Source: a virus (lineage: Duplodnaviria; Caudoviricetes). Taken from it: a DNA stretch of 64,000 nucleotides. How positions within the stretch are numbered: the stretch's first letter is position 1; every line of letters begins with the position of its first letter. Position numbers and translations under genes: made by a program. Below are positions 3,263 to 53,703 of this stretch, piece after piece. A model generated the notes under the pieces. It was not told the DNA's origin. It worked only from the letters and a program-made list of their open reading frames with translations, and did not search any database. The stretch lies in IMG/VR virus record IMGVR_UViG_3300037590_000079, positions 45,662 to 109,661 of that record. One strand, 5' to 3'.

Positions 3263-4177
3263 ATGGCACTTGATCCGCGCCTTCGTAAGATGGTCAGTCA
3301 GTCCAAGTCGAAATACAAGAGTAACGCCGGCGACATCCTCAAGCCCAAGGATGGGCGCAATCGCTATCGGCTGATCGCGCCGCGCCCCGAGCAGGCGAGC
3401 TGGGTTCCCGCCTCGTGCCAGTTCTGGGCGGATCTCGGTGTCCACTGGATCAAGCCCGCCGAAAACGCCAAGCCGATCGCTGTCGTCGGCGACCGCGAGA
3501 TCGTCTACCAGGAGCCGAACCCGATCAACACCGCGATCAACGCGGCCATCGATTCCGCCGTGGACGAGGAGTCGCAGGAGCTCTACAAGGGCTGGCGCTC
3601 GCGGCACACCGTGCTGGTCAACGTCGTGGATCGCGACAACAACGACAACGAGGAGATCCTGGAACTCACGCGCAACACGTTCAGCGCCGTTCTGGATCTG
3701 ATGGACATGTATGCCGAGGAGGGTCAGGATATCACCGACCCGAACGAAGGCATCGATATCTTCATCACTCGCACCGGCAAGGGGCTCAACACCGAATACA
3801 CGGTGTCGATCGCGCCGGGCAAGTCGCAGCCGATTCCCGAGGAAACCGTCACCAATGCCACGAACCTGTTCGAATTCATCGAGCAGAAATTCTTCCGCAT
3901 GGGCGACGAGCAGAAGGCGCTGAACGCGATCCAGCAGATCGCCGGCGTCGCGGTGCCCTCGCTGGAGAACAAGTCGGCAGCAAGCACGCCGACGGCGGCG
4001 CTGACCTCGTCGGCCGCGACTGTCGGTGACGCCGACGAGAGCGAGCCGGAAAAGGCCAAGGCCAAGCCCGAGACCCCGCCGCAGGCCGAGACCCAGGTTT
4101 CGGACGACGAGCTGGCAGCAAGCGGCATCGACGAAGAGGATACCGATCAGATCCTCTCGGAGCTTGACGGAATCTGA
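3263..4177 (+). CDS. gp32-like single-stranded DNA-binding protein
   Basis: RYRLI..P, HWIK, DITDPNEGIDIFITRTGKGLNTEYTV; acidic C-terminal tail; own promoter and terminator. Confidence 0.75.
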   Translation: MALDPRLRKMVSQSKSKYKSNAGDILKPKDGRNRYRLIAPRPEQASWVPASCQFWADLGVHWIKPAENAKPIAVVGDREIVYQEPNPINTAINAAIDSAVDEESQELYKGWRSRHTVLVNVVDRDNNDNEEILELTRNTFSAVLDLMDMYAEEGQDITDPNEGIDIFITRTGKGLNTEYTVSIAPGKSQPIPEETVTNATNLFEFIEQKFFRMGDEQKALNAIQQIAGVAVPSLENKSAASTPTAALTSSAATVGDADESEPEKAKAKPETPPQAETQVSDDELAASGIDEEDTDQILSELDGI

Positions 4178-39623: not shown

Positions 39624-39691
39624 TCGCGAGCGAGACAGGACCGGCCGGGCGTGCTATACTTCGGTCAGCGGTGACTGAGTAGGATTGCACC

Positions 39692-39916
39692 ATGTTCGAC
39701 TTTCTCACACGGATCGGCCTGCCCTGGGAGAAAGTTGCACCCGCGTGGTTACGCGGCACATCCCGTCTCATCCACAACGCCATCTGGAAAGATATGGATC
39801 AGGATCTCTGCTCGCGCGCCGTCTGGAAGGGCTGGAAGCGCTGGATACGCACCTTCGGGGTCGAGCACTGCGTGGACAGTTTCCTGCACTATCACGGCAA
39901 GAAAAAGAGCCGCTAG
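39692..39916 (+). CDS. Hypothetical protein
   Basis: TGCTATACT promoter plus a perfect operator upstream. Confidence 0.6.
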   Translation: MFDFLTRIGLPWEKVAPAWLRGTSRLIHNAIWKDMDQDLCSRAVWKGWKRWIRTFGVEHCVDSFLHYHGKKKSR

Positions 39917-43189: not shown

Positions 43190-43270
43190 CCGTCACGATC
43201 CGCACGTAATCCGTCGTCGCATCTGCTATAAATAAGCACTGACACAAGCGCAAAACGGGAGACGCACAAA

Positions 43271-43660
43271 ATGGACCTCAAGCAAGTCGCCGTCGAATTC
43301 ATCGAGAAAGACCACGCGCGGAACACGCAAACACCGAAGATCCGAGTGATCTATTTCGTGACGGAACAGGAGATCTCGGCAGACTATGGCAGCCCCTGCT
43401 GGCGCGTCGAGAACATCATCGAATTCGAAGCCGCCGAGATCGAGCGGGTGATCGAATACATGCGCGCCCTGGAGAAATCGGGACGCTGCTCGGCCGCGAC
43501 GATCTTTCAGGACATCATCATTGCGCGGAACACCGCGCGGGGCGCACGCGTCACAATCGAGCGCTGCGGCGACAACTCGCCGATGCACGACGCCGCGCCG
43601 GTGCTCGCCGCCATGCACGCCCAGTGGCTGCGCGACATGCTCGAAACCGCGAAAGCGTAA
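43271..43660 (+). CDS. Hypothetical protein
   Basis: Promoter, operator and GGAG RBS. Confidence 0.7.
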   Translation: MDLKQVAVEFIEKDHARNTQTPKIRVIYFVTEQEISADYGSPCWRVENIIEFEAAEIERVIEYMRALEKSGRCSAATIFQDIIIARNTARGARVTIERCGDNSPMHDAAPVLAAMHAQWLRDMLETAKA

Positions 43661-44315: not shown

Positions 44316-45600
44316 CACCACAATTCACGCACGAAACGGACAAAGCCGGTGCATCAGCATCGGCTTTTCCACGTCTGCACACCGCACGGGATCAACCGAT
44401 AACGACGCCCCTTGCACGTTTCCACGGGTTTCCGAATGTAAACATTCACACTCATCCATGTTCACATTTTCCGCGAAATCTCCGTAAAATAAGAGGATCG
44501 AATGTTTGCATCTTCCGAAAACCAGGATGGCAAATGTTCCGGATGTAAACATGCAGATCGAGGAAAATCAGGAACTTAGCCTCCCGGCACACCCGAAAAA
44601 CAGCCTTTTTAGGTGTAACACGTAAGAGAACAGGACAGAAGCGGATACCTGAAAACCGTCAGAAGCGCTGAGAAGCGCACACAGTGCGCCTAAGCACTCA
44701 CGACGAGCACCGACAGCTTAAAAGAGTCGGACAGCATCAGGTGAAGCGCACAGCGAGCCCCAGACGCATAGACACCTGCTGGGCAGCACGCACAGACGCG
44801 CCGACAGCGTAAAAGCAGCACGGGAACGCGTAGAGACGACACAGAGCCGGAAGAGGTGCGTGAGAAGATAGGAGATGCAGAGACGCACAGAGAGGTCGAG
44901 CGACAGAGAGCCGAGAGAGAAAGCGTTAAGAAGAGGGTAAGAGGAGAAGAGGGGAGGATCATTATAGGAGGATTGGGTGAGACCACACTTCCCCGCAACA
45001 CACCGCACCGCCCCGGATCTCCCGAACTCCTCAAGACGCCGTCCGAAGCCGCGGCACACCGACACGAAGCGTGCGAAACCAGACGACACCCTCGCTCTGC
45101 TGTGCTACTGTGCTAGTGAGAGACAACGCGTGTCCGGACGCGTTCGTGCTGAAAGGCACACTGTTTTGCGTTGCGCATCACGAGACCGGACCGGATGATG
45201 CTAACTCCAGGAGCGTGAGCACCGTCTCACGCTCCTTTTTCTTTCGCCTGACCTGTGCCGGAGAATGTGTCGCGGAAATGGGAGCTTTGGTGCATCATTA
45301 AGAACTTATCTAAAGAAGGTATCTAAGAGTATTATATATAAAGATACAGCGCGGCTCGGGAAAAGGGAGTTTTCAGACCTCTTCCGGAAAGCCACAAAAC
45401 GCACGAAAACCCTGTAAAATCAGCGTCTAAACACCTCTCCCGGCCAAGTCCTCACTGCCGGACCAGGATTCCGATCGCCGTGCTTCCTCGGGAAAAGGGA
45501 GCTTTCAGACCCCGCGGCGCTGAAAGCCGCGCCACTCATTTCCTTGAAAATCAAGGACTTGAAGATGATCCGCCCCTAATAGGAGCTCAAGCGTCCGGTC
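44316..45600. other. Long non-coding region, candidate replication origin/control region
   Basis: No credible ORF; ATGT-NN-RCAT palindromes at 44436, 44458, 44502, 44543; AT-rich patch 45298-45346; 21-bp direct repeat at 45359 and 45491. Confidence 0.45.
45117..45244 (+). ncRNA. Candidate structured small RNA
   Basis: TGCTACTGT -10-like box at ~45103, three hairpins (one with a GAAA loop), then an 11-bp terminator stem with T-run; no ORF. Confidence 0.35.
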
Positions 45601-46009
45601 CTGGCCGGGTTAGGAATGGCTGGGTATACACGCAAAGGCATTTGCGGGTGTGGCGCGCTCCAGACCCTGAGCCACACCCCTCGGTATACCGAGACCCGCC
45701 GGTATACCGAGGATCTCCCGCGGCACGGATGTGAGCCCGGAGGGACGGCAAGGCACAGAGAGGCATCCGGAGGGATCGCTGGCCCGGCAAAAGCGGTGCG
45801 GATTGCCACGGCTCGCCCTCCCGGTGCAAATCCTGACGCCCTGCCCTCTTTCCGCTCGATTTCGACGCACCCGACGGATCGGCTCGTCCCGCGCGCTCCC
45901 TGTCCGATGCCGATCGATGCCTGCCGCTATCCTTCGCAGCGTGTCGTATTGTGCAAGTGTGATCGCGACAAGCGCGACACGCGAAAGCAAAGCAGAAAGG
46001 AAATGTCAC

Positions 46010-46648
46010 ATGGCACAGAACGACAAAGTCACCGAAAAGACCTTCGCGGAGATCATCGCAGATGTGAGCGCCGGCCGCACCAAGAAGCGGATCAGCGATT
46101 TCGAGACCGCCTTCGACGCGCGCATGGCGCACGAGACGCAGAAGGCCGCCGGCAACACCTCGATCCAGAAGGTGCTGAAGGCCGAGAAGGCGAAGCTGAC
46201 CACGCCCGCCCTTGCCGCGCTGAGCCTCGCCGCCGAGATGAGCCCGGACTTCGTCAACCGCGTCAGCCGAGGCGACGCCCGTTTCAACGTCTACGCCATC
46301 AAGAAGATCACGGACCTGATGAACGGTCTCAACGGCCAGGCCATGCGGAACGCGATCAACATCGCCATCATCAAGTCGATGCTGGCCTGCGAGAAGGCGG
46401 GCGTGCCCTTCACCGGCCAGATCGCGCAGGCCGCGGTCTCCGACAAGCTGCCGCTCAAGAAGGAACTCGACGCGATCATGACGCGGCACAATGTCGGTGC
46501 GAGCACGGCACCGACGCAGGCGTCCTCGACGATGAACGCCCTGATGATGACCGGCGTGGCGCGCAACACGGGCACGACGCGCAACCCGGTCTACGAACTC
46601 AAGGCGACGCCGCAGACCGAGGTGCTGCGCACGATGTTCGCCGCGTAA
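46010..46648 (+). CDS. Hypothetical protein (family shared with the 52481 and 28243 ORFs)
   Basis: AAAGGA RBS; normal codon usage; hairpin at 46661-46698 downstream. Confidence 0.8.
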   Translation: MAQNDKVTEKTFAEIIADVSAGRTKKRISDFETAFDARMAHETQKAAGNTSIQKVLKAEKAKLTTPALAALSLAAEMSPDFVNRVSRGDARFNVYAIKKITDLMNGLNGQAMRNAINIAIIKSMLACEKAGVPFTGQIAQAAVSDKLPLKKELDAIMTRHNVGASTAPTQASSTMNALMMTGVARNTGTTRNPVYELKATPQTEVLRTMFAA

Positions 46649-47153: not shown

Positions 47154-47441
47154 ATGATGGATTATCACGAGGCGGCAGCGCAGTGGGAGCAGCTTTGCGA
47201 AGGCAGCGAGCTGCTCCGGATCTATATCGAGAACGTCGAGGTGCGCGAGGATCGCATCGTCTACAATTTCGACGGGCACATGAAGTGCGTGCTGTTCTGG
47301 AACACGGAGATCGGCAAGTGGGTCGAGCGCGGCGACGTGCGCGGCGACGAGGATCTGGTGACGATCGAGCGCGGCATTATCGCGAACACGCTGATCGAGG
47401 TGCGCGACAGGCTTGAGGAGGAGCTGCGCGACCCGCTCTGA
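47154..47441 (+). CDS. Hypothetical protein (single-gene cassette)
   Basis: ACGCAACGCAAGACGGAG leader. Confidence 0.7.
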   Translation: MMDYHEAAAQWEQLCEGSELLRIYIENVEVREDRIVYNFDGHMKCVLFWNTEIGKWVERGDVRGDEDLVTIERGIIANTLIEVRDRLEEELRDPL

Positions 47442-47682
47442 GAGCGCTCTGAAGGCGGGGCCGGGAATGGCATCGTCTTCAGGGACCGGCCGATCCGGGA
47501 ATGGCTGGCTCCGGGCGTGTGGATGGCAGGATGGACGGGTATACCGATCCGCGGTCAATTGCGGGGCGCCGGATCCCTGCCCGGCCCTGCACCGACCGTC
47601 GCGTGCCTGGCGTCACCGCGCGCAAACCGCATCTCGCTCTGCTATGTGTGAGACACGCAACACGAAGCAGAAAGAGAGAACC

Positions 47683-48075
47683 ATGCAGATCGCAGAACCG
47701 CAGAACCTCGAACTCAAGACCTATCTCAAGAACCTGTTCGATCTGACCGAAGATGATGCGCGCGAGATCGCGCTCGACCTCGAACAGGTCATGCGCGGTG
47801 ATACCGAGAGCACCCGGTATTTCGAGACGAAGAAACCGCAGCATACGGTTCGTATCAGTGACGAACTCGCACAGCGCATCGCGAACCATGTCGCAGACCT
47901 GCTCGACCGCGAGCTGCCCACTTCCATCGAGATCCCGGCCACTGACCGCGGTGTCATTCTCGACCGCGTGTCGCAGAGTTGCCGCGCGCACCTCGAAACC
48001 CACTGGGCGAAAGACGCGAGTGCGACCTTCTGCGACGCACCTGACGACCACGACATACCGTCGCGCACCGCGTGA
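47683..48075 (+). CDS. Hypothetical protein (single-gene cassette)
   Basis: CAGAAAGAGAGAACC-ATG leader. Confidence 0.7.
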   Translation: MQIAEPQNLELKTYLKNLFDLTEDDAREIALDLEQVMRGDTESTRYFETKKPQHTVRISDELAQRIANHVADLLDRELPTSIEIPATDRGVILDRVSQSCRAHLETHWAKDASATFCDAPDDHDIPSRTA

Positions 48076-48150
48076 AAACCTGATCGAGACGTGTCAGTGT
48101 AGCAATGTGTCTACACTGACACGCAACGCAGAACCTGAAAGGAACTCATC

Positions 48151-48474
48151 ATGACCGCAGAACGTCAACTCGAAACGATCCTCGATGGCCTCAAGCCGCT
48201 CGACGCCGAAAAGGCGCTCGACGGCGATCTCAGCGAGCGCTTCTCGGCCGTCGTCGGCCAGACCTTCTTGATCGACGTGATCCTCGTCGATACCGAGCAC
48301 TACCCGGACGTGTCCGTGGTTCTCGATATCTATCGTCGTGAAGGCACGCACAACATTCACGACGACTTCCGCGGTCTGAGCGATCACGTCGGCCTCTACG
48401 CGGTCCGGTCGCTGCACGACGCCGTCATGCGCATCGCGTCCGCGGTCGTCGTTCACGAAGATACCGTGATCTGA
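48151..48474 (+). CDS. Hypothetical protein
   Basis: ACGCAACGCAGA leader; AAGGA RBS. Confidence 0.7.
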   Translation: MTAERQLETILDGLKPLDAEKALDGDLSERFSAVVGQTFLIDVILVDTEHYPDVSVVLDIYRREGTHNIHDDFRGLSDHVGLYAVRSLHDAVMRIASAVVVHEDTVI

Positions 48475-48543
48475 GCGCCGCGAACGACCTGTGTGCGCCG
48501 CGGCGCACACAGGCATCAGCAAGGCAGACAGAAAGAGATAGCT

Positions 48544-48729
48544 ATGACCGACATCAACCGCATGAAAACCGGCCAGCGCGTCAAGATCGATCACCCCTTC
48601 TACGGCCAGCGCGTCGTCACGATCGAGGATTTCGACGGCCCCAAGGGCAGCACCGTGAACGATACCGGCCTTTGCACGATCGACGGCGCGCGCGTATGGT
48701 TCGATCAGGACATGATCGTCAGCGCCTGA
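48544..48729 (+). CDS. Hypothetical protein (SH3-like beta fold possible)
   Basis: CAGACAGAAAGAGA leader; GQRVKI.HPFYG..VV. Confidence 0.6.
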   Translation: MTDINRMKTGQRVKIDHPFYGQRVVTIEDFDGPKGSTVNDTGLCTIDGARVWFDQDMIVSA

Positions 48730-48735
48730 TGCGCA

Positions 48736-48764
48736 CCAAGGGCGAGCAAGGCGCTCGCCCTTGG
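48736..48764. repeat. 12-bp-stem hairpin, copy 1
   Basis: CCAAGGGCGAGC-AAGGC-GCTCGCCCTTGG. Confidence 0.8.
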
Positions 48765-48862
48765 GACCGACGGGCCTGCACGCGCCGTCACATACCTGCC
48801 GAAAACCTCGAAACGCGTCGCTATTCTGACTGCACTCGCAACGCAGACAGAAAGAGAGAACC

Positions 48863-49312
48863 ATGCTTTACGTGACCGAGAAAGACCTGCTTCACATCAA
48901 GAACGAAGACCTGCACGGTCCTGTCGTCGAGTGCCTCGGCCTCTTCGACGCTGTTCAGCGTCTGTGCAAGTCGCGCCTCACGAACGACGACCGCATCATG
49001 CTCTGGAGCCTTCACGACGCCTATGTCGATCACGAGCAGCGCGACGCCGTCTCGCGCCATGAGGCGCTGCTGATCATCGAGAGCATGATGCGCCTCATGC
49101 CTGTGACGGTCTTGCGCGAGCACAACAACGCGCTCGAATATCTGCACCTCGGCCTCGACGAGGCGCAGTCGCACGACGCGATCAACGGTTTTGTGTGGTG
49201 CAGCACGTATCTGCCTTTCGACAAGAGCGCGCCGTGCGCGACCTGCATCGCAGACGAGAGCGCCTTTCCGGAACTGATCGCGATGATCGAGGGCGCGCTC
49301 AACATCGAGTGA
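48863..49312 (+). CDS. Hypothetical protein
   Basis: CGCAACGCAGACAGAAAGAGAGAACC-ATG leader. Confidence 0.7.
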   Translation: MLYVTEKDLLHIKNEDLHGPVVECLGLFDAVQRLCKSRLTNDDRIMLWSLHDAYVDHEQRDAVSRHEALLIIESMMRLMPVTVLREHNNALEYLHLGLDEAQSHDAINGFVWCSTYLPFDKSAPCATCIADESAFPELIAMIEGALNIE

Positions 49313-49318
49313 CGAGAA

Positions 49319-49347
49319 CCGAGGGCGAGCAAGGCGCTCGCCCTCGG
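49319..49347. repeat. 12-bp-stem hairpin, copy 2
   Basis: CCGAGGGCGAGC-AAGGC-GCTCGCCCTCGG; compensatory change relative to copy 1. Confidence 0.8.
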
Positions 49348-49451
49348 GACGCGCCGGTGCGGGGCCACGGAAACGAATGGCCGCGCAGGGAGAGGTTCTG
49401 CAAGGGCTCTGACGGGCCGCGCGTCCCGCGGGCAGCCCTCCCGGCACGCAA

Positions 49452-49482
49452 GAAAAAGGGCGTGCGTCACGCACGCCCTTCT
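49452..49482 (-). terminator. Terminator between convergent genes
   Basis: AAGGGCGTGCG / CGCACGCCCTT stem with A-run on the left. Confidence 0.7.
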
Positions 49483-49490
49483 CGTCTCGC

Positions 49491-49844
49491 TTACGCGACC
49501 TCGGGCACGAGCGCGCGCTGACGTGCCTTCTCGCGCCGCCGGCGCCACACCTTCGCCCAGTAGCGCCCTTTGCGCGCCTTCATCTTCTCGCGCATCGCGA
49601 TGCGCAGATCGTGCCGCTTCGCGCTGATATAGGCGCAGGCCGCTTCCACCTGGTCGTCGTGCAGCCCCGCTTCCTCGAAGAGCCGCTCGATGCGCGCTTC
49701 GAGCGACCGCGCGCTCGCAGCGCACGCATCGCGCGCCTTGTCGCTCACGCTCTGCGAGCCCCTTTCGATGCCGCGCAGATCGCGTTCCTCACGCGCGATC
49801 TTGTCGAGAATGACACGCTGCCGGATTTCGAAGTCGGTTTTCAT
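49491..49844 (-). CDS. Hypothetical basic helical protein
   Basis: AAAGGA RBS on the minus strand. Confidence 0.65.
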   Translation of the reverse strand: MKTDFEIRQRVILDKIAREERDLRGIERGSQSVSDKARDACAASARSLEARIERLFEEAGLHDDQVEAACAYISAKRHDLRIAMREKMKARKGRYWAKVWRRRREKARQRALVPEVA

Positions 49845-49904
49845 AGCAAGTTCCTTTCTCTGCTTTGCTTGCATCTTTAGCTTTGCAGCTATCTGAGCGG
49901 ATAG

Positions 49905-50066
49905 CTATCGGTATGCAGCGGCTTGCTCAGGCGTCATCAGGCCGAGAAGGACAGAGGTGTCGGCGGGAGCGACGGTCACGGCGATCATCAGCGCCATCAG
50001 GAGCACGCCGGCGACGAGCACGGCCAGGCCGCTGAGCAGTTCGAGCAGTTCCTCCAGCACGCTCAC
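49905..50066 (-). CDS. Small membrane protein
   Basis: GTG start with GGAGG RBS; one long hydrophobic helix. Confidence 0.55.
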   Translation of the reverse strand: MSVLEELLELLSGLAVLVAGVLLMALMIAVTVAPADTSVLLGLMTPEQAAAYR

Positions 50067-50251
50067 GCCTCCTTTGCCTGAAGGGCGCTCAGCGAGCCGC
50101 GCAGACGCCGCAGCAGCGCGATTTCCTGCCGCACCAGCGGGCGCATGATCGCGTGCGCGTTGCGACCGCGAAGCCACACTCTGACGCGCGATTCCTGCGC
50201 GCTGATCGCGCCGATGAGGCGCTGCTTCTCGATTTCGTGACGGTTTTGCAT
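50063..50251 (-). CDS. Hypothetical protein
   Basis: ACGCAAGCAGAGAGCGAGA leader. Confidence 0.6.
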   Translation of the reverse strand: MQNRHEIEKQRLIGAISAQESRVRVWLRGRNAHAIMRPLVRQEIALLRRLRGSLSALQAKEA

Positions 50252-50460
50252 GGTAGTCTCGCTCTCTGCTTGCGTTTTCAGTAAGTTATGAATGACACGC
50301 GTAGAGACGGATTGCGGCAGGCATCGACAGGTGCGCGCAGGGCGTGCCAGGGGCGGCGCATCCCTGCCGCCCTGCGCGCGCCGTCTGAAGCCTGCCGACA
50401 TCCTGATTTTCGCGTGCGAGTCTGTGATTACTGACAACGCAGACAGAAAGAGAGAAGATC

Positions 50461-50724
50461 ATGACCTTCGCTAAAACGACGAAAAAGAACATCGCGCCGC
50501 ATCTCGACGAGCAAGATGAAGAGATCCTCGACGCGATGCGCAAGATCGCGGCCGCATTCTACAAGAAGGCAATCGTCAAGATGAACGACGCCGCGGTCGA
50601 GAACGTCTCGCCCGATGAGGTCTACGATCTCGTCGCGCAGTCGCGCCGCTACAGCGTGAAATCGAGCAATTACGAGCGCAAGCTGCGCCGTATTTATGAC
50701 GAGAAGCGCAAAGACGCCTTCTGA
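50461..50724 (+). CDS. Hypothetical protein (no Gly or Trp)
   Basis: ACGCAGACAGAAAGAGAGA leader. Confidence 0.7.
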   Translation: MTFAKTTKKNIAPHLDEQDEEILDAMRKIAAAFYKKAIVKMNDAAVENVSPDEVYDLVAQSRRYSVKSSNYERKLRRIYDEKRKDAF

Positions 50725-50796
50725 TACCTGCCGACATCCTTCGTCTTGCGTGTCAGTTTGTGATTACTGACACGCAAGACAGAAAGAGAGAGTATC

Positions 50797-51045
50797 ATGC
50801 CCTACACGTTTCAGAACCCGACGCTGCACATGCAAGCTGATGCGGTCATCGTCGCGATGTTCGAAGGCGACAACGAATACGCGATCATCGACGCGGGCTC
50901 GAACGGCACTGCGAATTTCGTGCTCGTCGTTGCCTCGCTCGCAGAAGGCGACGACGTGGTCGTGCTCGAAGAGCACTGCGCGCGCCTGCAAGAAGCCATC
51001 ACGCTCCTCAACGAGTTCATCGACTCTGAATACGCGGACGCTTGA
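50797..51045 (+). CDS. Hypothetical acidic protein
   Basis: ACGCAAGACAGAAAGAGAGA leader. Confidence 0.7.
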   Translation: MPYTFQNPTLHMQADAVIVAMFEGDNEYAIIDAGSNGTANFVLVVASLAEGDDVVVLEEHCARLQEAITLLNEFIDSEYADA

Positions 51046-52180: not shown

Positions 52181-52444
52181 GGAATGGTCTCCTATGGTCT
52201 GGGGAAAGGAATGGAGAGGTGCCGGACGGGAGCCGCCTGCCGACGGGCAGGCACATGGCTCGGCGCAGGCGCAGCGGGTAGGGACGCCCCGTGTGGCGGA
52301 AATGCCACAGTGTGATTTTCTCGTCACTATGGCATTTCTGCAACTGTGCTTTTCATGTCGCAGTGTGACATTCATGCCGTCGATCCCCCTACTGTGACAT
52401 TTTTGCAACACGCTCTCGCGTGTGCATGTTACCGAAAGTCGAAA

Positions 52445-52472
52445 CGTGCAGCGCTCTTGCGAGCGCTGCACG
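52445..52472 (-). terminator. Terminator hairpin of the GG/CC-free gene
   Basis: Perfect 12-bp stem CGTGCAGCGCTC / GAGCGCTGCACG 8 nt after the stop; TTTCGACTTT follows on the minus strand. Confidence 0.7.
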
Positions 52473-52480
52473 CTGTCACG

Positions 52481-53020
52481 TCAGCACGCGACGAAATCAG
52501 CGAATTTCTCAGCGCACGCGTCGAGCAATGCGCTGTCACGCGCTTCATACGTATGTTTCGAGATTTCGCGCATCATGTTCGCATTTTTCATCATGCTGAT
52601 AGCGAGTTGCACTTGACGTGCTGTCGAGTGTTTCGACTGACGCTCATGCACGATATGCGCGCGTTCGTCGCTCACTTTGCACGAATTCAGCATCGCGCAT
52701 TCGATATCGTGACGCGTCACGAAAGCGTCATGTGCGCGCGCGTTGAGAAGCGTCTTGATCGCGCACAGCGAATTCTGCTTCACGTCGCTTGCGCTGATAT
52801 GATCGCGCGTGACGTTGTGCGCGATGTTCACGATATCAAACGCGCAGTAGAGATCACGCGCGTTGAAATAGCGCGCGTCGATATTGCTCGCGATAAGCAT
52901 ATCGTAAACGCGCTTGTCTGCGCATTTCAGCGCAAGCGACTGCGCTTTCTTGACGTTGTTCGCGCACAGTTCGCGCTTTTCGATCAGCGACTTGAATGCT
53001 TTGCTATACTTGTTCGACAT
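52481..53020 (-). CDS. 179-aa protein without Gly, Pro or Trp, encoded in GG/CC-free DNA
   Basis: Open frame with promoter, AGAGAGAGA RBS and terminator; resembles the 46010 protein by eye. Confidence 0.75.
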   Translation of the reverse strand: MSNKYSKAFKSLIEKRELCANNVKKAQSLALKCADKRVYDMLIASNIDARYFNARDLYCAFDIVNIAHNVTRDHISASDVKQNSLCAIKTLLNARAHDAFVTRHDIECAMLNSCKVSDERAHIVHERQSKHSTARQVQLAISMMKNANMMREISKHTYEARDSALLDACAEKFADFVAC

Positions 53021-53069
53021 TGTGTCTCTCTCTCGTTTTGCGTTGCTAGCGTTGTTCGCTAGTAAGTTA

Positions 53070-53098
53070 CATCTACGCGAAACAATCGCACAATGCAA
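53070..53098 (-). promoter_or_regulatory. Sigma70-like promoter of the GG/CC-free gene
   Basis: TTGCAT-N17-TAGATG on the minus strand; a TAGCTATC box abuts the -35. Confidence 0.55.
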
Positions 53099-53470
53099 TA
53101 GCTATCTAGCTAAAAAATGTCTCAATCGTGATTTTTTTTCGATATCGTCACAGAGCGTCACAGAGCGTCATACAGTGCGCTTAGCATCTTGCGCTAGTCT
53201 GTGTCGCGAAACGACGCAATCGCACTGTGTGAAGCGCACAGCGCTTCTGTGCGCGTGCTGCGTCTCGTGCGTCTCGAAGTCTTAGAAAATCGCGAGATGC
53301 TTGAGGGGGATACCCTCTGTGTCCACCAGCTCCCGGCGTTGAAAGCTCCCATACTCTCTGTGCCACCGACATCCTGGCACAAAAGCTCCCCTGCCCCGCG
53401 CACCACAACGGATATTGCTGGATACTCCCATAGCTATCCGGCTCTGTATGGATCTACCTCGATAGCTATC

Positions 53471-53545
53471 TGGCTCCCCGGACAGGGTTCGAACCTGTAA
53501 CCTGCCGATTAACAGTCGGCTGCTCTACCGTTGAGCTACCGGGGA
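53471..53545 (-). tRNA. tRNA-Asn(GTT)
   Basis: TCCCCGG acceptor stem, CCGAC-TGTTAAT anticodon arm, GGTTCGAAC T-loop, encoded CCA. Confidence 0.95.
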
Positions 53546-53548
53546 AGA

Positions 53549-53624
<76 letters not shown>

Positions 53625-53626
53625 AA

Positions 53627-53703
53627 TGGTCCGTGTGGAGGGATTTGAACCCCCGTCTCTCCGCGTCCAAGGCGGCCACTCTACCAGGCTGAGCTACACA
53701 CGG
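53627..53703 (-). tRNA. tRNA-Pro(TGG)
   Basis: CCGTGTG acceptor stem (C1:G72, A73), loop CTTGGAC, GGTTCAAAT, ACCA end. Confidence 0.9.

Follow-up and report, generated by a model that had tools for sequence, protein, structure and literature searches.

A gene cassette without GG or CC

The stretch of DNA analysed here, called the window below, covers 64,000 nucleotides (positions 45,662 to 109,661) of the IMG/VR virus record IMGVR_UViG_3300037590_000079 (Duplodnaviria; Caudoviricetes) and belongs to a phage-plasmid genome of 109,661 bp with 60.9% GC. This section describes an island of this window in which neither GG nor CC occurs, together with the small gene, named C, that the island contains. 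The features of the cassette are the following.

52433..53304, no strand: GG/CC-free island, an 873-bp gap from the CC at 52432-33 to the GG at 53305
52481..53020, minus strand: gene C, encoding a 179-amino-acid (aa) protein (P0001, isoelectric point 8.9) without Gly, Pro or Trp
52443..52474, minus strand: probable terminator, a strong hairpin after the stop codon (14-bp stem, -34.6 kcal/mol, z -3.65) followed by a U-rich tail
53021..53039, minus strand: purine-rich leader AACGAGAGAGAGACACA, which replaces a GGAGG-type Shine-Dalgarno sequence
53070..53108, minus strand: candidate proximal promoter TTGCAT-N17-TAGATG (53070-53098) plus an abutting palindrome, recognised from sequence only and failing the sigma-70 consensus scan
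53276..53314, minus strand: boundary motif GG(C/T)ATC-N4-TCA-N15-TCTAAGACTTC, present as a single copy in the genome and a putative terminal-repeat boundary

The first-pass annotation of this locus had reported that GG and CC are missing from 52434 to 53304, and a recount agrees: back to 52390 only one CC is met (52432-33), and a CCCCC run lies at 52386-90. GG is next met 47 nt past the stop codon of gene C. Translation of 53020..52481 on the minus strand likewise returns the predicted 179-aa product devoid of Gly, Pro and Trp, and the GAGAGAGA leader is found as described before the ATG of the gene; diverged relatives share a ACAGAGAGA-type leader. Two other parts of the proposed cassette have to be amended. 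The terminator hairpin is real, but its stem measures 14 bp instead of 12, and the promoter TTGCAT-N17-TAGATG is present as a sequence, but a sigma-70 consensus scan found no promoter.

The absence of this step is exceptional in its genomic context. GG/CC ranks second in frequency among the dinucleotide steps of the genome (0.142 per base), and the local base composition predicts 32-45 occurrences per 300 bp, that is about 120 over the whole island, where none is observed; the earlier estimate of about 100 was of the right order. The genome-wide GG/CC scan that had been proposed was run and makes the island the sole stretch of its kind, the longest other gap being 68 bp, in the window as in the 109,661-bp genome. 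The TA step has a gap of 748 bp, which fits its rarity (0.016 per base), and all the remaining steps have gaps of at most 205 bp. The GC content is 52% in the island versus 61% genome-wide.

The ban on GG and CC is real and is not an artefact. Contigs from four other pond-metagenome runs align to this stretch and several of them span the island with zero differences; the mis-assembly or base-calling fault that the first-pass annotation had allowed for is not what these independent contigs reproduce. A natural variant contig carries 13 substitutions within 151 bp and still zero GG/CC, an outcome with P = 0.02 under random substitution.

Conservation and relaxation of the ban among relatives

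Protein searches retrieve homologues of C, at 26-61% identity, in the Rhizobium phages B1VFA, V1VFA-S, RHph_X66 and RHph_N1_10 and in short metagenomic contigs. The loci are syntenic, with parA, a small regulator, HslV-like genes and tRNAs, then gene C. Contigs of Ancylobacter, Faunimonas and Methylocystis were reached through a paralogue of C, named N and described below. The following loci hold a GG/CC-free island around the orthologous gene.

B1VFA: 851 bp
V1VFA-S: 1,279 bp
RHph_N1_10: 840 bp, or 1,146 bp with two hits
Logan contig L001: 649 + 224 bp
Ancylobacter rudongensis contig: 693 bp
Faunimonas pinastri contig: 501 + 189 bp
Methylocystis contig (metagenome-assembled genome): 1,257 bp

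The question raised at first reading, whether orthologues would turn out to have normal GG/CC content, is answered by these seven other diverged loci, all of which hold the island. Exactly one island was found in each complete genome scanned, namely the window's own, RHph_N1_10, the Ancylobacter contig and the Faunimonas contig. When six islands are pooled (5,750 bp), GG occurs once versus 347 expected and CC four times versus 342 expected. Among the other steps, TA, which is rare genome-wide, stands at 0.57 of expectation and the rest at 0.9-1.25, with CG and GC raised 1.8-fold.

The ban is reflected in most of the protein family. A profile search of 1.84 billion representative proteins yields 61 C-family members or clusters, of which about 47 lack any Gly, Pro or Trp, and this state is retained even where protein identity drops below 25%. 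Many host genera and several orders of Alphaproteobacteria show the phenomenon, the phage-plasmids concerned being those of bacteria from soil and water. In the family tree, the N proteins constitute one clade with 99% support, separate from an old and diverse C family; within the latter, the state free of the three residues is ancestral and was relaxed secondarily at least five times, at scattered places. Since family members with Gly or Pro exist, the C fold tolerates these residues. One relaxed relative, L007 (a 62.9-kb IMG/VR contig), was read at the DNA level: its gene holds 32 GG/CC, 24 of which fall at codon 3|1 junctions, while the protein still has no more than three Gly, Pro or Trp residues. 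This pattern, in which the junctions come first, is expected after the recent lifting of a nucleotide-level ban. Taken together, these comparisons demonstrate at the sequence level that the ban has been kept by selection across deep divergence.

Further searches of the family added little. Scans of viral contigs with C-family patterns gave no confirmed relative with one pattern and one locus with another, the same type of scan gave no relatives among genome contigs and metagenome contigs, and tblastn of other C-family members against the phage collection returned the same Rhizobium phages and nothing further. Two ideas on the relaxed members were rejected. A residual ban on GGC/GGG in the L007 gene is not significant given its amino-acid make-up, and loss of RepC as the cause of relaxation relies on a single case, the relaxed-island contig G001, which has an RPA-type initiator. 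In this contig, an RPA-type replication initiator (L029:1226-2311, PF10134, E = 4e-87) lies where other family members have repC, a replicon swap within the family.

A first alternative can be weighed at this point, namely that no functional selection is involved and that the island is a fault of assembly or base calling, a foreign insert of low GC content, or the product of local hypermutation by a CC-specific deaminase. The lower GC content of the island compared to the genome goes in this direction. Against it, the same island turns up in Illumina-sequenced isolates, assembled bacterial genomes and several metagenome runs; the steps enriched (1.8-fold) are CG and GC and not the deamination products; the reading frame is intact and encodes a conserved protein predicted to fold with high confidence; and the state is still present where identity has fallen under 25%. 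Within the reach of sequence data, this explanation is already refuted, and the probability left to it is negligible.

A ban tied to position

The ban acts at the level of nucleotides. In gene C, codon junctions contain no GG/CC versus 33.6 expected when its own codons are shuffled and, because of this, the ban bears on nucleotides and not merely on three amino acids. The first-pass annotation had placed the constraint on double-stranded DNA and neither on protein nor on mRNA. Its exclusion of the protein stands, the junctions and the non-coding flanks being clean alike, but the mRNA level retains the small probability discussed below.

The ban is furthermore bound to a site. The boundary motif is found at the outer edge of the island, with exact spacing, in eight loci. 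GG and CC are tolerated in the upstream half of the motif and in its spacer and cease at TCTAAGAC. Counted inward from TCTAAGAC, the clean stretches are the following.

Window: 853 bp, no early leaks
B1VFA: 847 bp, no early leaks
Ancylobacter: 689 bp, no early leaks
V1VFA-S: 1,275 bp, no early leaks
L001: 774 bp, a few early leaks
RHph_N1_10: 1,054 bp, a few early leaks
Methylocystis: 1,293 bp, a few early leaks

In the Faunimonas locus the gene is flipped and the motif is inverted and located downstream of the gene (4 mismatches, chance about 0.002); the island still adjoins the motif. Moreover, several islands contain extra small genes that are mutually unrelated and all devoid of Gly, Pro and Trp.

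V1VFA-S: V1VFAS_038, 85 aa
RHph_N1_10: EVB77_013, 64 aa
L001: open reading frame of 52 aa
Methylocystis locus: open reading frame of 67 aa

That unrelated small genes obey the ban at the same position implies that it is positional and not tied to one protein family. Comparison of the loci thus establishes, in sequence terms, a ban that is positional and anchored to the boundary motif.

The same boundaries could be read at the transcript level, the mRNA having to lack both GG and CC in order to resist, for example, a dinucleotide-specific ribonuclease or an mRNA-modifying toxin at work during takeover or defence, and escaping at the same time all interactions that require GG, Shine-Dalgarno-like pairing among them. 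The island indeed spans from the conserved upstream motif, a possible promoter, to just past the terminator hairpin; the upstream half of the motif still admits GG and CC, which return right after the hairpin, and the Shine-Dalgarno sequence itself is sacrificed. The islands also leak mostly on the sense strand, with 13 CC versus 2 GG. These leaks nevertheless fit the NCC codons preferred in GC-rich genomes, and a strand-specific reader, which they had suggested, was set aside for this reason. On one strand the ban covers GG as well as CC, which a single reader of double-stranded DNA explains and a single reader of RNA does not. In addition, 185 bp of the window's island lie upstream of the sole promoter-like element near the gene, and the boundary motif is unique and coincides with the putative end of the virion DNA mapped below. 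A transcript-level ban is therefore considered rather improbable.

Protein C and its ordinary paralogue

An AlphaFold2 model of C was built with the family alignment and reaches a predicted local distance difference test (pLDDT) score of 95.9. The model shows helices in the N-terminal half and a winged helix in the C-terminal half: helices extend through residue 146 and are followed by strands at 150-154 and 157-160, that is a helix-turn-helix and then a beta-hairpin wing. In the VIA structure comparison, C gives Z 9.0 to 2qvo and Z 7-8 to the winged-helix domains of MarR, ArsR and ORC, and the neighbours of the whole protein in the ESM Atlas are models of BrxA (TM 0.57) and of MksE/MukE. C is thus confidently predicted to adopt a winged-helix DNA-binding fold, a likeness at the fold level only from which no function follows. 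Its C-terminal half superposes with Z 7-9 on many winged-helix domains, but C matches no sequence family, and Z values in this range are common for winged-helix folds. Pfam and PHROGs give no family above threshold for C or N, Foldseek against the PDB gives nothing at E <= 0.001, and a BFVD search returns only uncharacterised relatives.

The paralogue lies next to a large non-coding region.

46010..46648, plus strand: gene N, ordinary-composition paralogue of C, 212 aa with Gly and Pro (family hidden Markov model, E = 2.7e-11)
44319..46009, no strand: large non-coding region upstream of N; the homologous region of B1VFA holds the other putative repeat boundary (relatives only)

The N and C pair is found at all the related loci examined. 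N-type proteins are encoded on contigs of 105-120 kb from Phaeobacter, Ancylobacter, Faunimonas, Mesorhizobium and Agrobacterium, which fits the phage-plasmid nature of B1VFA and V1VFA-S (PMC12509600). By sequence and tree, C is a recoded paralogue of N, that is, the paralogue of an ordinary phage gene.

C or N could itself bind or target GG/CC steps, for instance in coating or silencing, and its own gene would have to be free of sites. The modelled winged helix is in line with this idea of self-avoidance, as is the fact that the ban accompanies the C family over more than 60 sequence clusters. Unrelated small genes at the same position obey the ban all the same, at least five lineages have relaxed it yet keep a well-conserved C, and elsewhere the phage genome equals that of the host in GG/CC richness, so that a coating protein would silence the phage itself. 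Such self-avoidance seems very unlikely.

The region between N and C contains, at 47154-51045, the seven genes with the lowest GG/CC density of the genome after C (0.05-0.10 per base versus a median of 0.143). These genes have few Gly, Pro and Trp codons, and the five that were searched in Pfam have no family match.

Probable position of the island on the virion DNA

The ends of the Rhizobium phage-plasmids B1VFA and V1VFA-S are fixed, and their direct terminal repeats, published without coordinates, measure 3,605 bp in the former and 3,939 bp in the latter (PMC12509600). The start of the B1VFA record is arbitrary and lies among nucleotide-metabolism genes, so the record coordinates are uninformative on the ends. 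The two lengths can nevertheless be used in combination. The two genomes align well around the island, apart from a 332-bp GG/CC-free insertion in V1VFA-S just downstream of gene C and a 777-bp (plus 29-bp) indel just outside the motif. The repeat was sought as a 3,605-bp segment of B1VFA that matches 3,939 +/- 2 bp of V1VFA-S, and genome-wide with unique 15-mer anchors. Within +/-5.5 kb, the sole start interval fitting both repeat lengths contains the motif and the island edge. Genome-wide, 40 of the 22,200 testable starts fit both lengths, and all 40 are located at positions 39,631-39,794 of the B1VFA record. The other end of the repeat then falls at 43,236-43,399, an interval that encloses the motif (43,246-43,256) together with the edge of the island. 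No 10-mer shared by the large non-coding regions was found that could serve as a candidate second repeat boundary.

Mapped in this way, the repeat would begin midway in the large non-coding region and extend over N, two small genes and C as far as the motif, with C reading inward from the tip. Extended by homology, the putative repeat of the window would reach from about 44.3-46.0 kb to 53.3 kb, and the seven genes of lowest GG/CC density after C all fall inside this span. The published repeat lengths and the comparative mapping make it quite probable that the island lies at the physical tip of the virion DNA.

A proposed protected leading end

The reading that is favoured here, with a little better than an even chance, is that the island constitutes a safe zone at the leading end of the phage DNA against a putative GG/CC reader. 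The island would form the last 0.7-1.3 kb at the outer end of the direct terminal repeat, starting at the boundary motif, and its end would enter the cell first. This DNA would be the first to be exposed and the first to be expressed in a new host, like the pre-early or early-entering DNA of T5 and T7. An activity that needs a GG/CC step would cut, mark, bind or block DNA before the phage takes over, and the island would escape by lacking the step. C would be a bootstrap copy of N, whose gene sits at the other side of the same repeat, expressible from GG/CC-free DNA, and any other small gene landing at the island position would be recoded likewise. The reader that the ban would protect against could be a host nuclease or defence system, a DNA mark made by the phage itself, or some other factor. 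One of the two models of the first-pass annotation, that of first-injected anti-defence DNA, finds support in its geometric half, the published repeat lengths of B1VFA and V1VFA-S mapping one boundary to the outer edge of the island. The protospacer-adjacent motifs (PAMs) and restriction sites that it had listed are candidate targets only. A general avoidance of restriction sites was rejected, GCGC (136), CGCG (109), TCGA (56) and GATC (31) being abundant in the 5,750 bp of pooled islands.

A bolder version of the same reading is put forward tentatively, at clearly less than even chance: an undescribed and widespread activity would read bare GG/CC on incoming double-stranded DNA, and several unrelated phage lineages would have recoded their first-entering kilobase and its genes so as to do without GG/CC and without Gly, Pro and Trp, with a bootstrap copy of a key DNA-binding protein in it. 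This activity would be a nuclease, a marking enzyme or a binding factor, with a specificity below that of any known restriction enzyme or reader of the PAMs of CRISPR.

Several observations weigh against a protected leading end. These hosts are not known to have a reader of the bare GG/CC step, and no GG/CC reader was identified in the phage. The physical ends are deduced from two published lengths and an alignment, for B1VFA and V1VFA-S only. The depths of the pond-metagenome contigs show no doubling over the putative repeat, these being low-depth contigs and possibly plasmid-form DNA. The genes beside the island within the putative repeat (about 51.0-52.5 kb) have a normal GG/CC density, so there is no simple gradient from the tip. 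The island also corresponds approximately to one transcription unit, from the conserved motif to the terminator, and phage T5 has no such island.

The comparison with T5 is instructive on both sides. T5 also has a direct terminal repeat, in which there are small early genes, each with its own promoter, and long non-coding stretches. Its record annotates this repeat as the first-entering DNA, and the small DNA-binding protein A2, along with A1, is needed for the entry of the remaining genome; RHph_N1_10 has a gene annotated 'A1 protein'. The analogy that had been drawn at first reading accordingly stands for the proposed layout, with pre-early genes in a terminal repeat, but not for the depletion: the first 12 kb of T5 contain no dinucleotide-free stretch in its first-step-transfer DNA, the longest GG/CC gap being 80 bp. 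No database or fold search linked C to A2, the two proteins not having been compared directly, and gene C has no match to the A1 or A2 families; the window's genome presents only a 73-aa N-terminal match to the 620-aa 'A1 protein' of the relatives, far from the island. The first-step-transfer region of T5 does contain 368 bp without CG at a divergent promoter region (L039, 5900-6268); CG is rare in T5 and chance may account for it.

In the Autographiviridae, motifs in the early-injected region alone decide the sensitivity to a Type I restriction system (PMC12455610). In the proposed reading the island follows the principle seen in the gene 0.3/Ocr region of T7, and in Murciavirus with Type I restriction (PMC12455610), that only motifs in the first-entering DNA matter, an early product shielding the rest. 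The difference lies in the word avoided. In T7 and Murciavirus the word is a 6-8-bp site recognised by a host enzyme of known identity, avoided at little cost; here it is a 2-bp step, banned totally over about 1 kb at the cost of three amino acids and of the Shine-Dalgarno sequence, across many host genera. Another point of comparison is found in CRISPR immunity. The depletion of PAMs in phages is said to be weak, statistical and genome-wide. The word avoided would be the same, CC/GG, but the avoidance described here is absolute, local and tied to the tip of the DNA. Two papers report such genome-wide depletion, for instance that of the CC PAM of type I-F systems (PMC4246573, PMC12174588).

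The cassette could also owe its composition to the phage itself, which is the second model of the first-pass annotation. If the virion DNA carried a modification at GG/CC sites that hinders host RNA polymerase or DNA binding, the first gene to be read would have to lack the targets; the geometry of a first-expressed terminal cassette would be the same and only the reader would differ. A candidate writer is a conserved ParB-ParB-ABC ATPase-GNAT-like operon located beside the terminase genes. This module is present. Two of its products are ParB_N proteins, one is an ABC-type ATPase, and another, of 294 aa, matches GNAT weakly (E = 0.0065, below the Pfam cut-off); the module is conserved family-wide at 48-79% identity (most genes 53-79%). 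That one protein exists both in a normal and in a recoded version agrees with a bootstrap from marked DNA, and the many host genera favour a phage-borne cause over the defence of a single host. The module occurs in all the strict genomes but also in the relaxed lineage (L007/G001), at 55-79% identity, where a change in specificity is possible. The annotations of the relatives list no known genes for DNA methyltransferases, deazaguanine or glycosylation, the window's genome lacks the thymidylate-synthase homologue of RHph_N1_10, and the other GG/CC-rich genes of the putative repeat would be silenced as well. A self-made mark is held to be unlikely, with more weight than the transcript-level ban, and its version based on cytosine modification by a thymidylate synthase was dropped for want of a homologue in the window's genome.

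In RHph_N1_10 the module is located just upstream of the terminase genes (L004:16676-20793), and its homologues are found at both ends of the window's genome contig. Into the RHph_N1_10 module a Tad2-like gene has been inserted (Thoeris anti-defence, PF11195, E = 1e-23).

Novelty and implications

Full-text literature searches returned no description of a phage gene free of GG/CC or of Gly, Pro and Trp. The family-wide survey, the tree of C and N with its repeated relaxations, the unique boundary motif, the case of the inverted gene, the unrelated co-resident genes and the quantitative mapping of the repeat are new. If the proposed reading is true, the island would represent the most extreme motif avoidance known, with a two-letter step totally banned over about 1 kb at a phage chromosome's tip, and so strongly that functional genes lose three amino acids and their ribosome-binding consensus. 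It would point to an undescribed factor reading GG/CC, either host-borne or phage-borne. In uncultured phages, the GG/CC-free signature may be a sign of the leading end and of the genes expressed first, and the pair made of the normal N and the recoded C could reveal the role of the infection's first protein. The C-family proteins free of Gly, Pro and Trp are, besides, natural cases of folded proteins made from 17 amino acids.

Additional elements of the locus

A palindrome, GATAGCTAT (53099-53107), adjoins the -35 hexamer of the candidate promoter of gene C. An equivalent ATAGCTAT-TGCAAT arrangement is observed in RHph_N1_10 (L003, about 3835-3850), the palindrome (G)ATAGCTAT abutting a -35-like TTGCA(T/A) in both genomes, and it may be a shared operator or a centromere-like site. 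Inside the island, upstream of the promoter-like element, three tandem 10-mers lie beside a T8 run at 53146-53175 (CGTCACAGAG twice and CGTCATACAG once) and have an iteron-like appearance.

A cluster of tRNA-Asn(GTT), tRNA-Ile(GAT) and tRNA-Pro(TGG) adjoins the island at 53471-53703, and an Rfam scan found these three tRNAs and nothing else. In B1VFA and V1VFA-S the same place is occupied by Met, Asn and Trp(CCA)-like tRNAs, on the opposite strand relative to gene C.

On the other side, a conserved element rich in GG/CC, CCACACGGGGCGTCCC, followed by CCATTCC-type repeats, is located at 52272-52290 of the window and is also present in the downstream flanks of L001, L007 and L008. It begins 0.06-0.3 kb past the inner edge of the island and may act as a promoter or operator for the gene that follows, or as some other signal.

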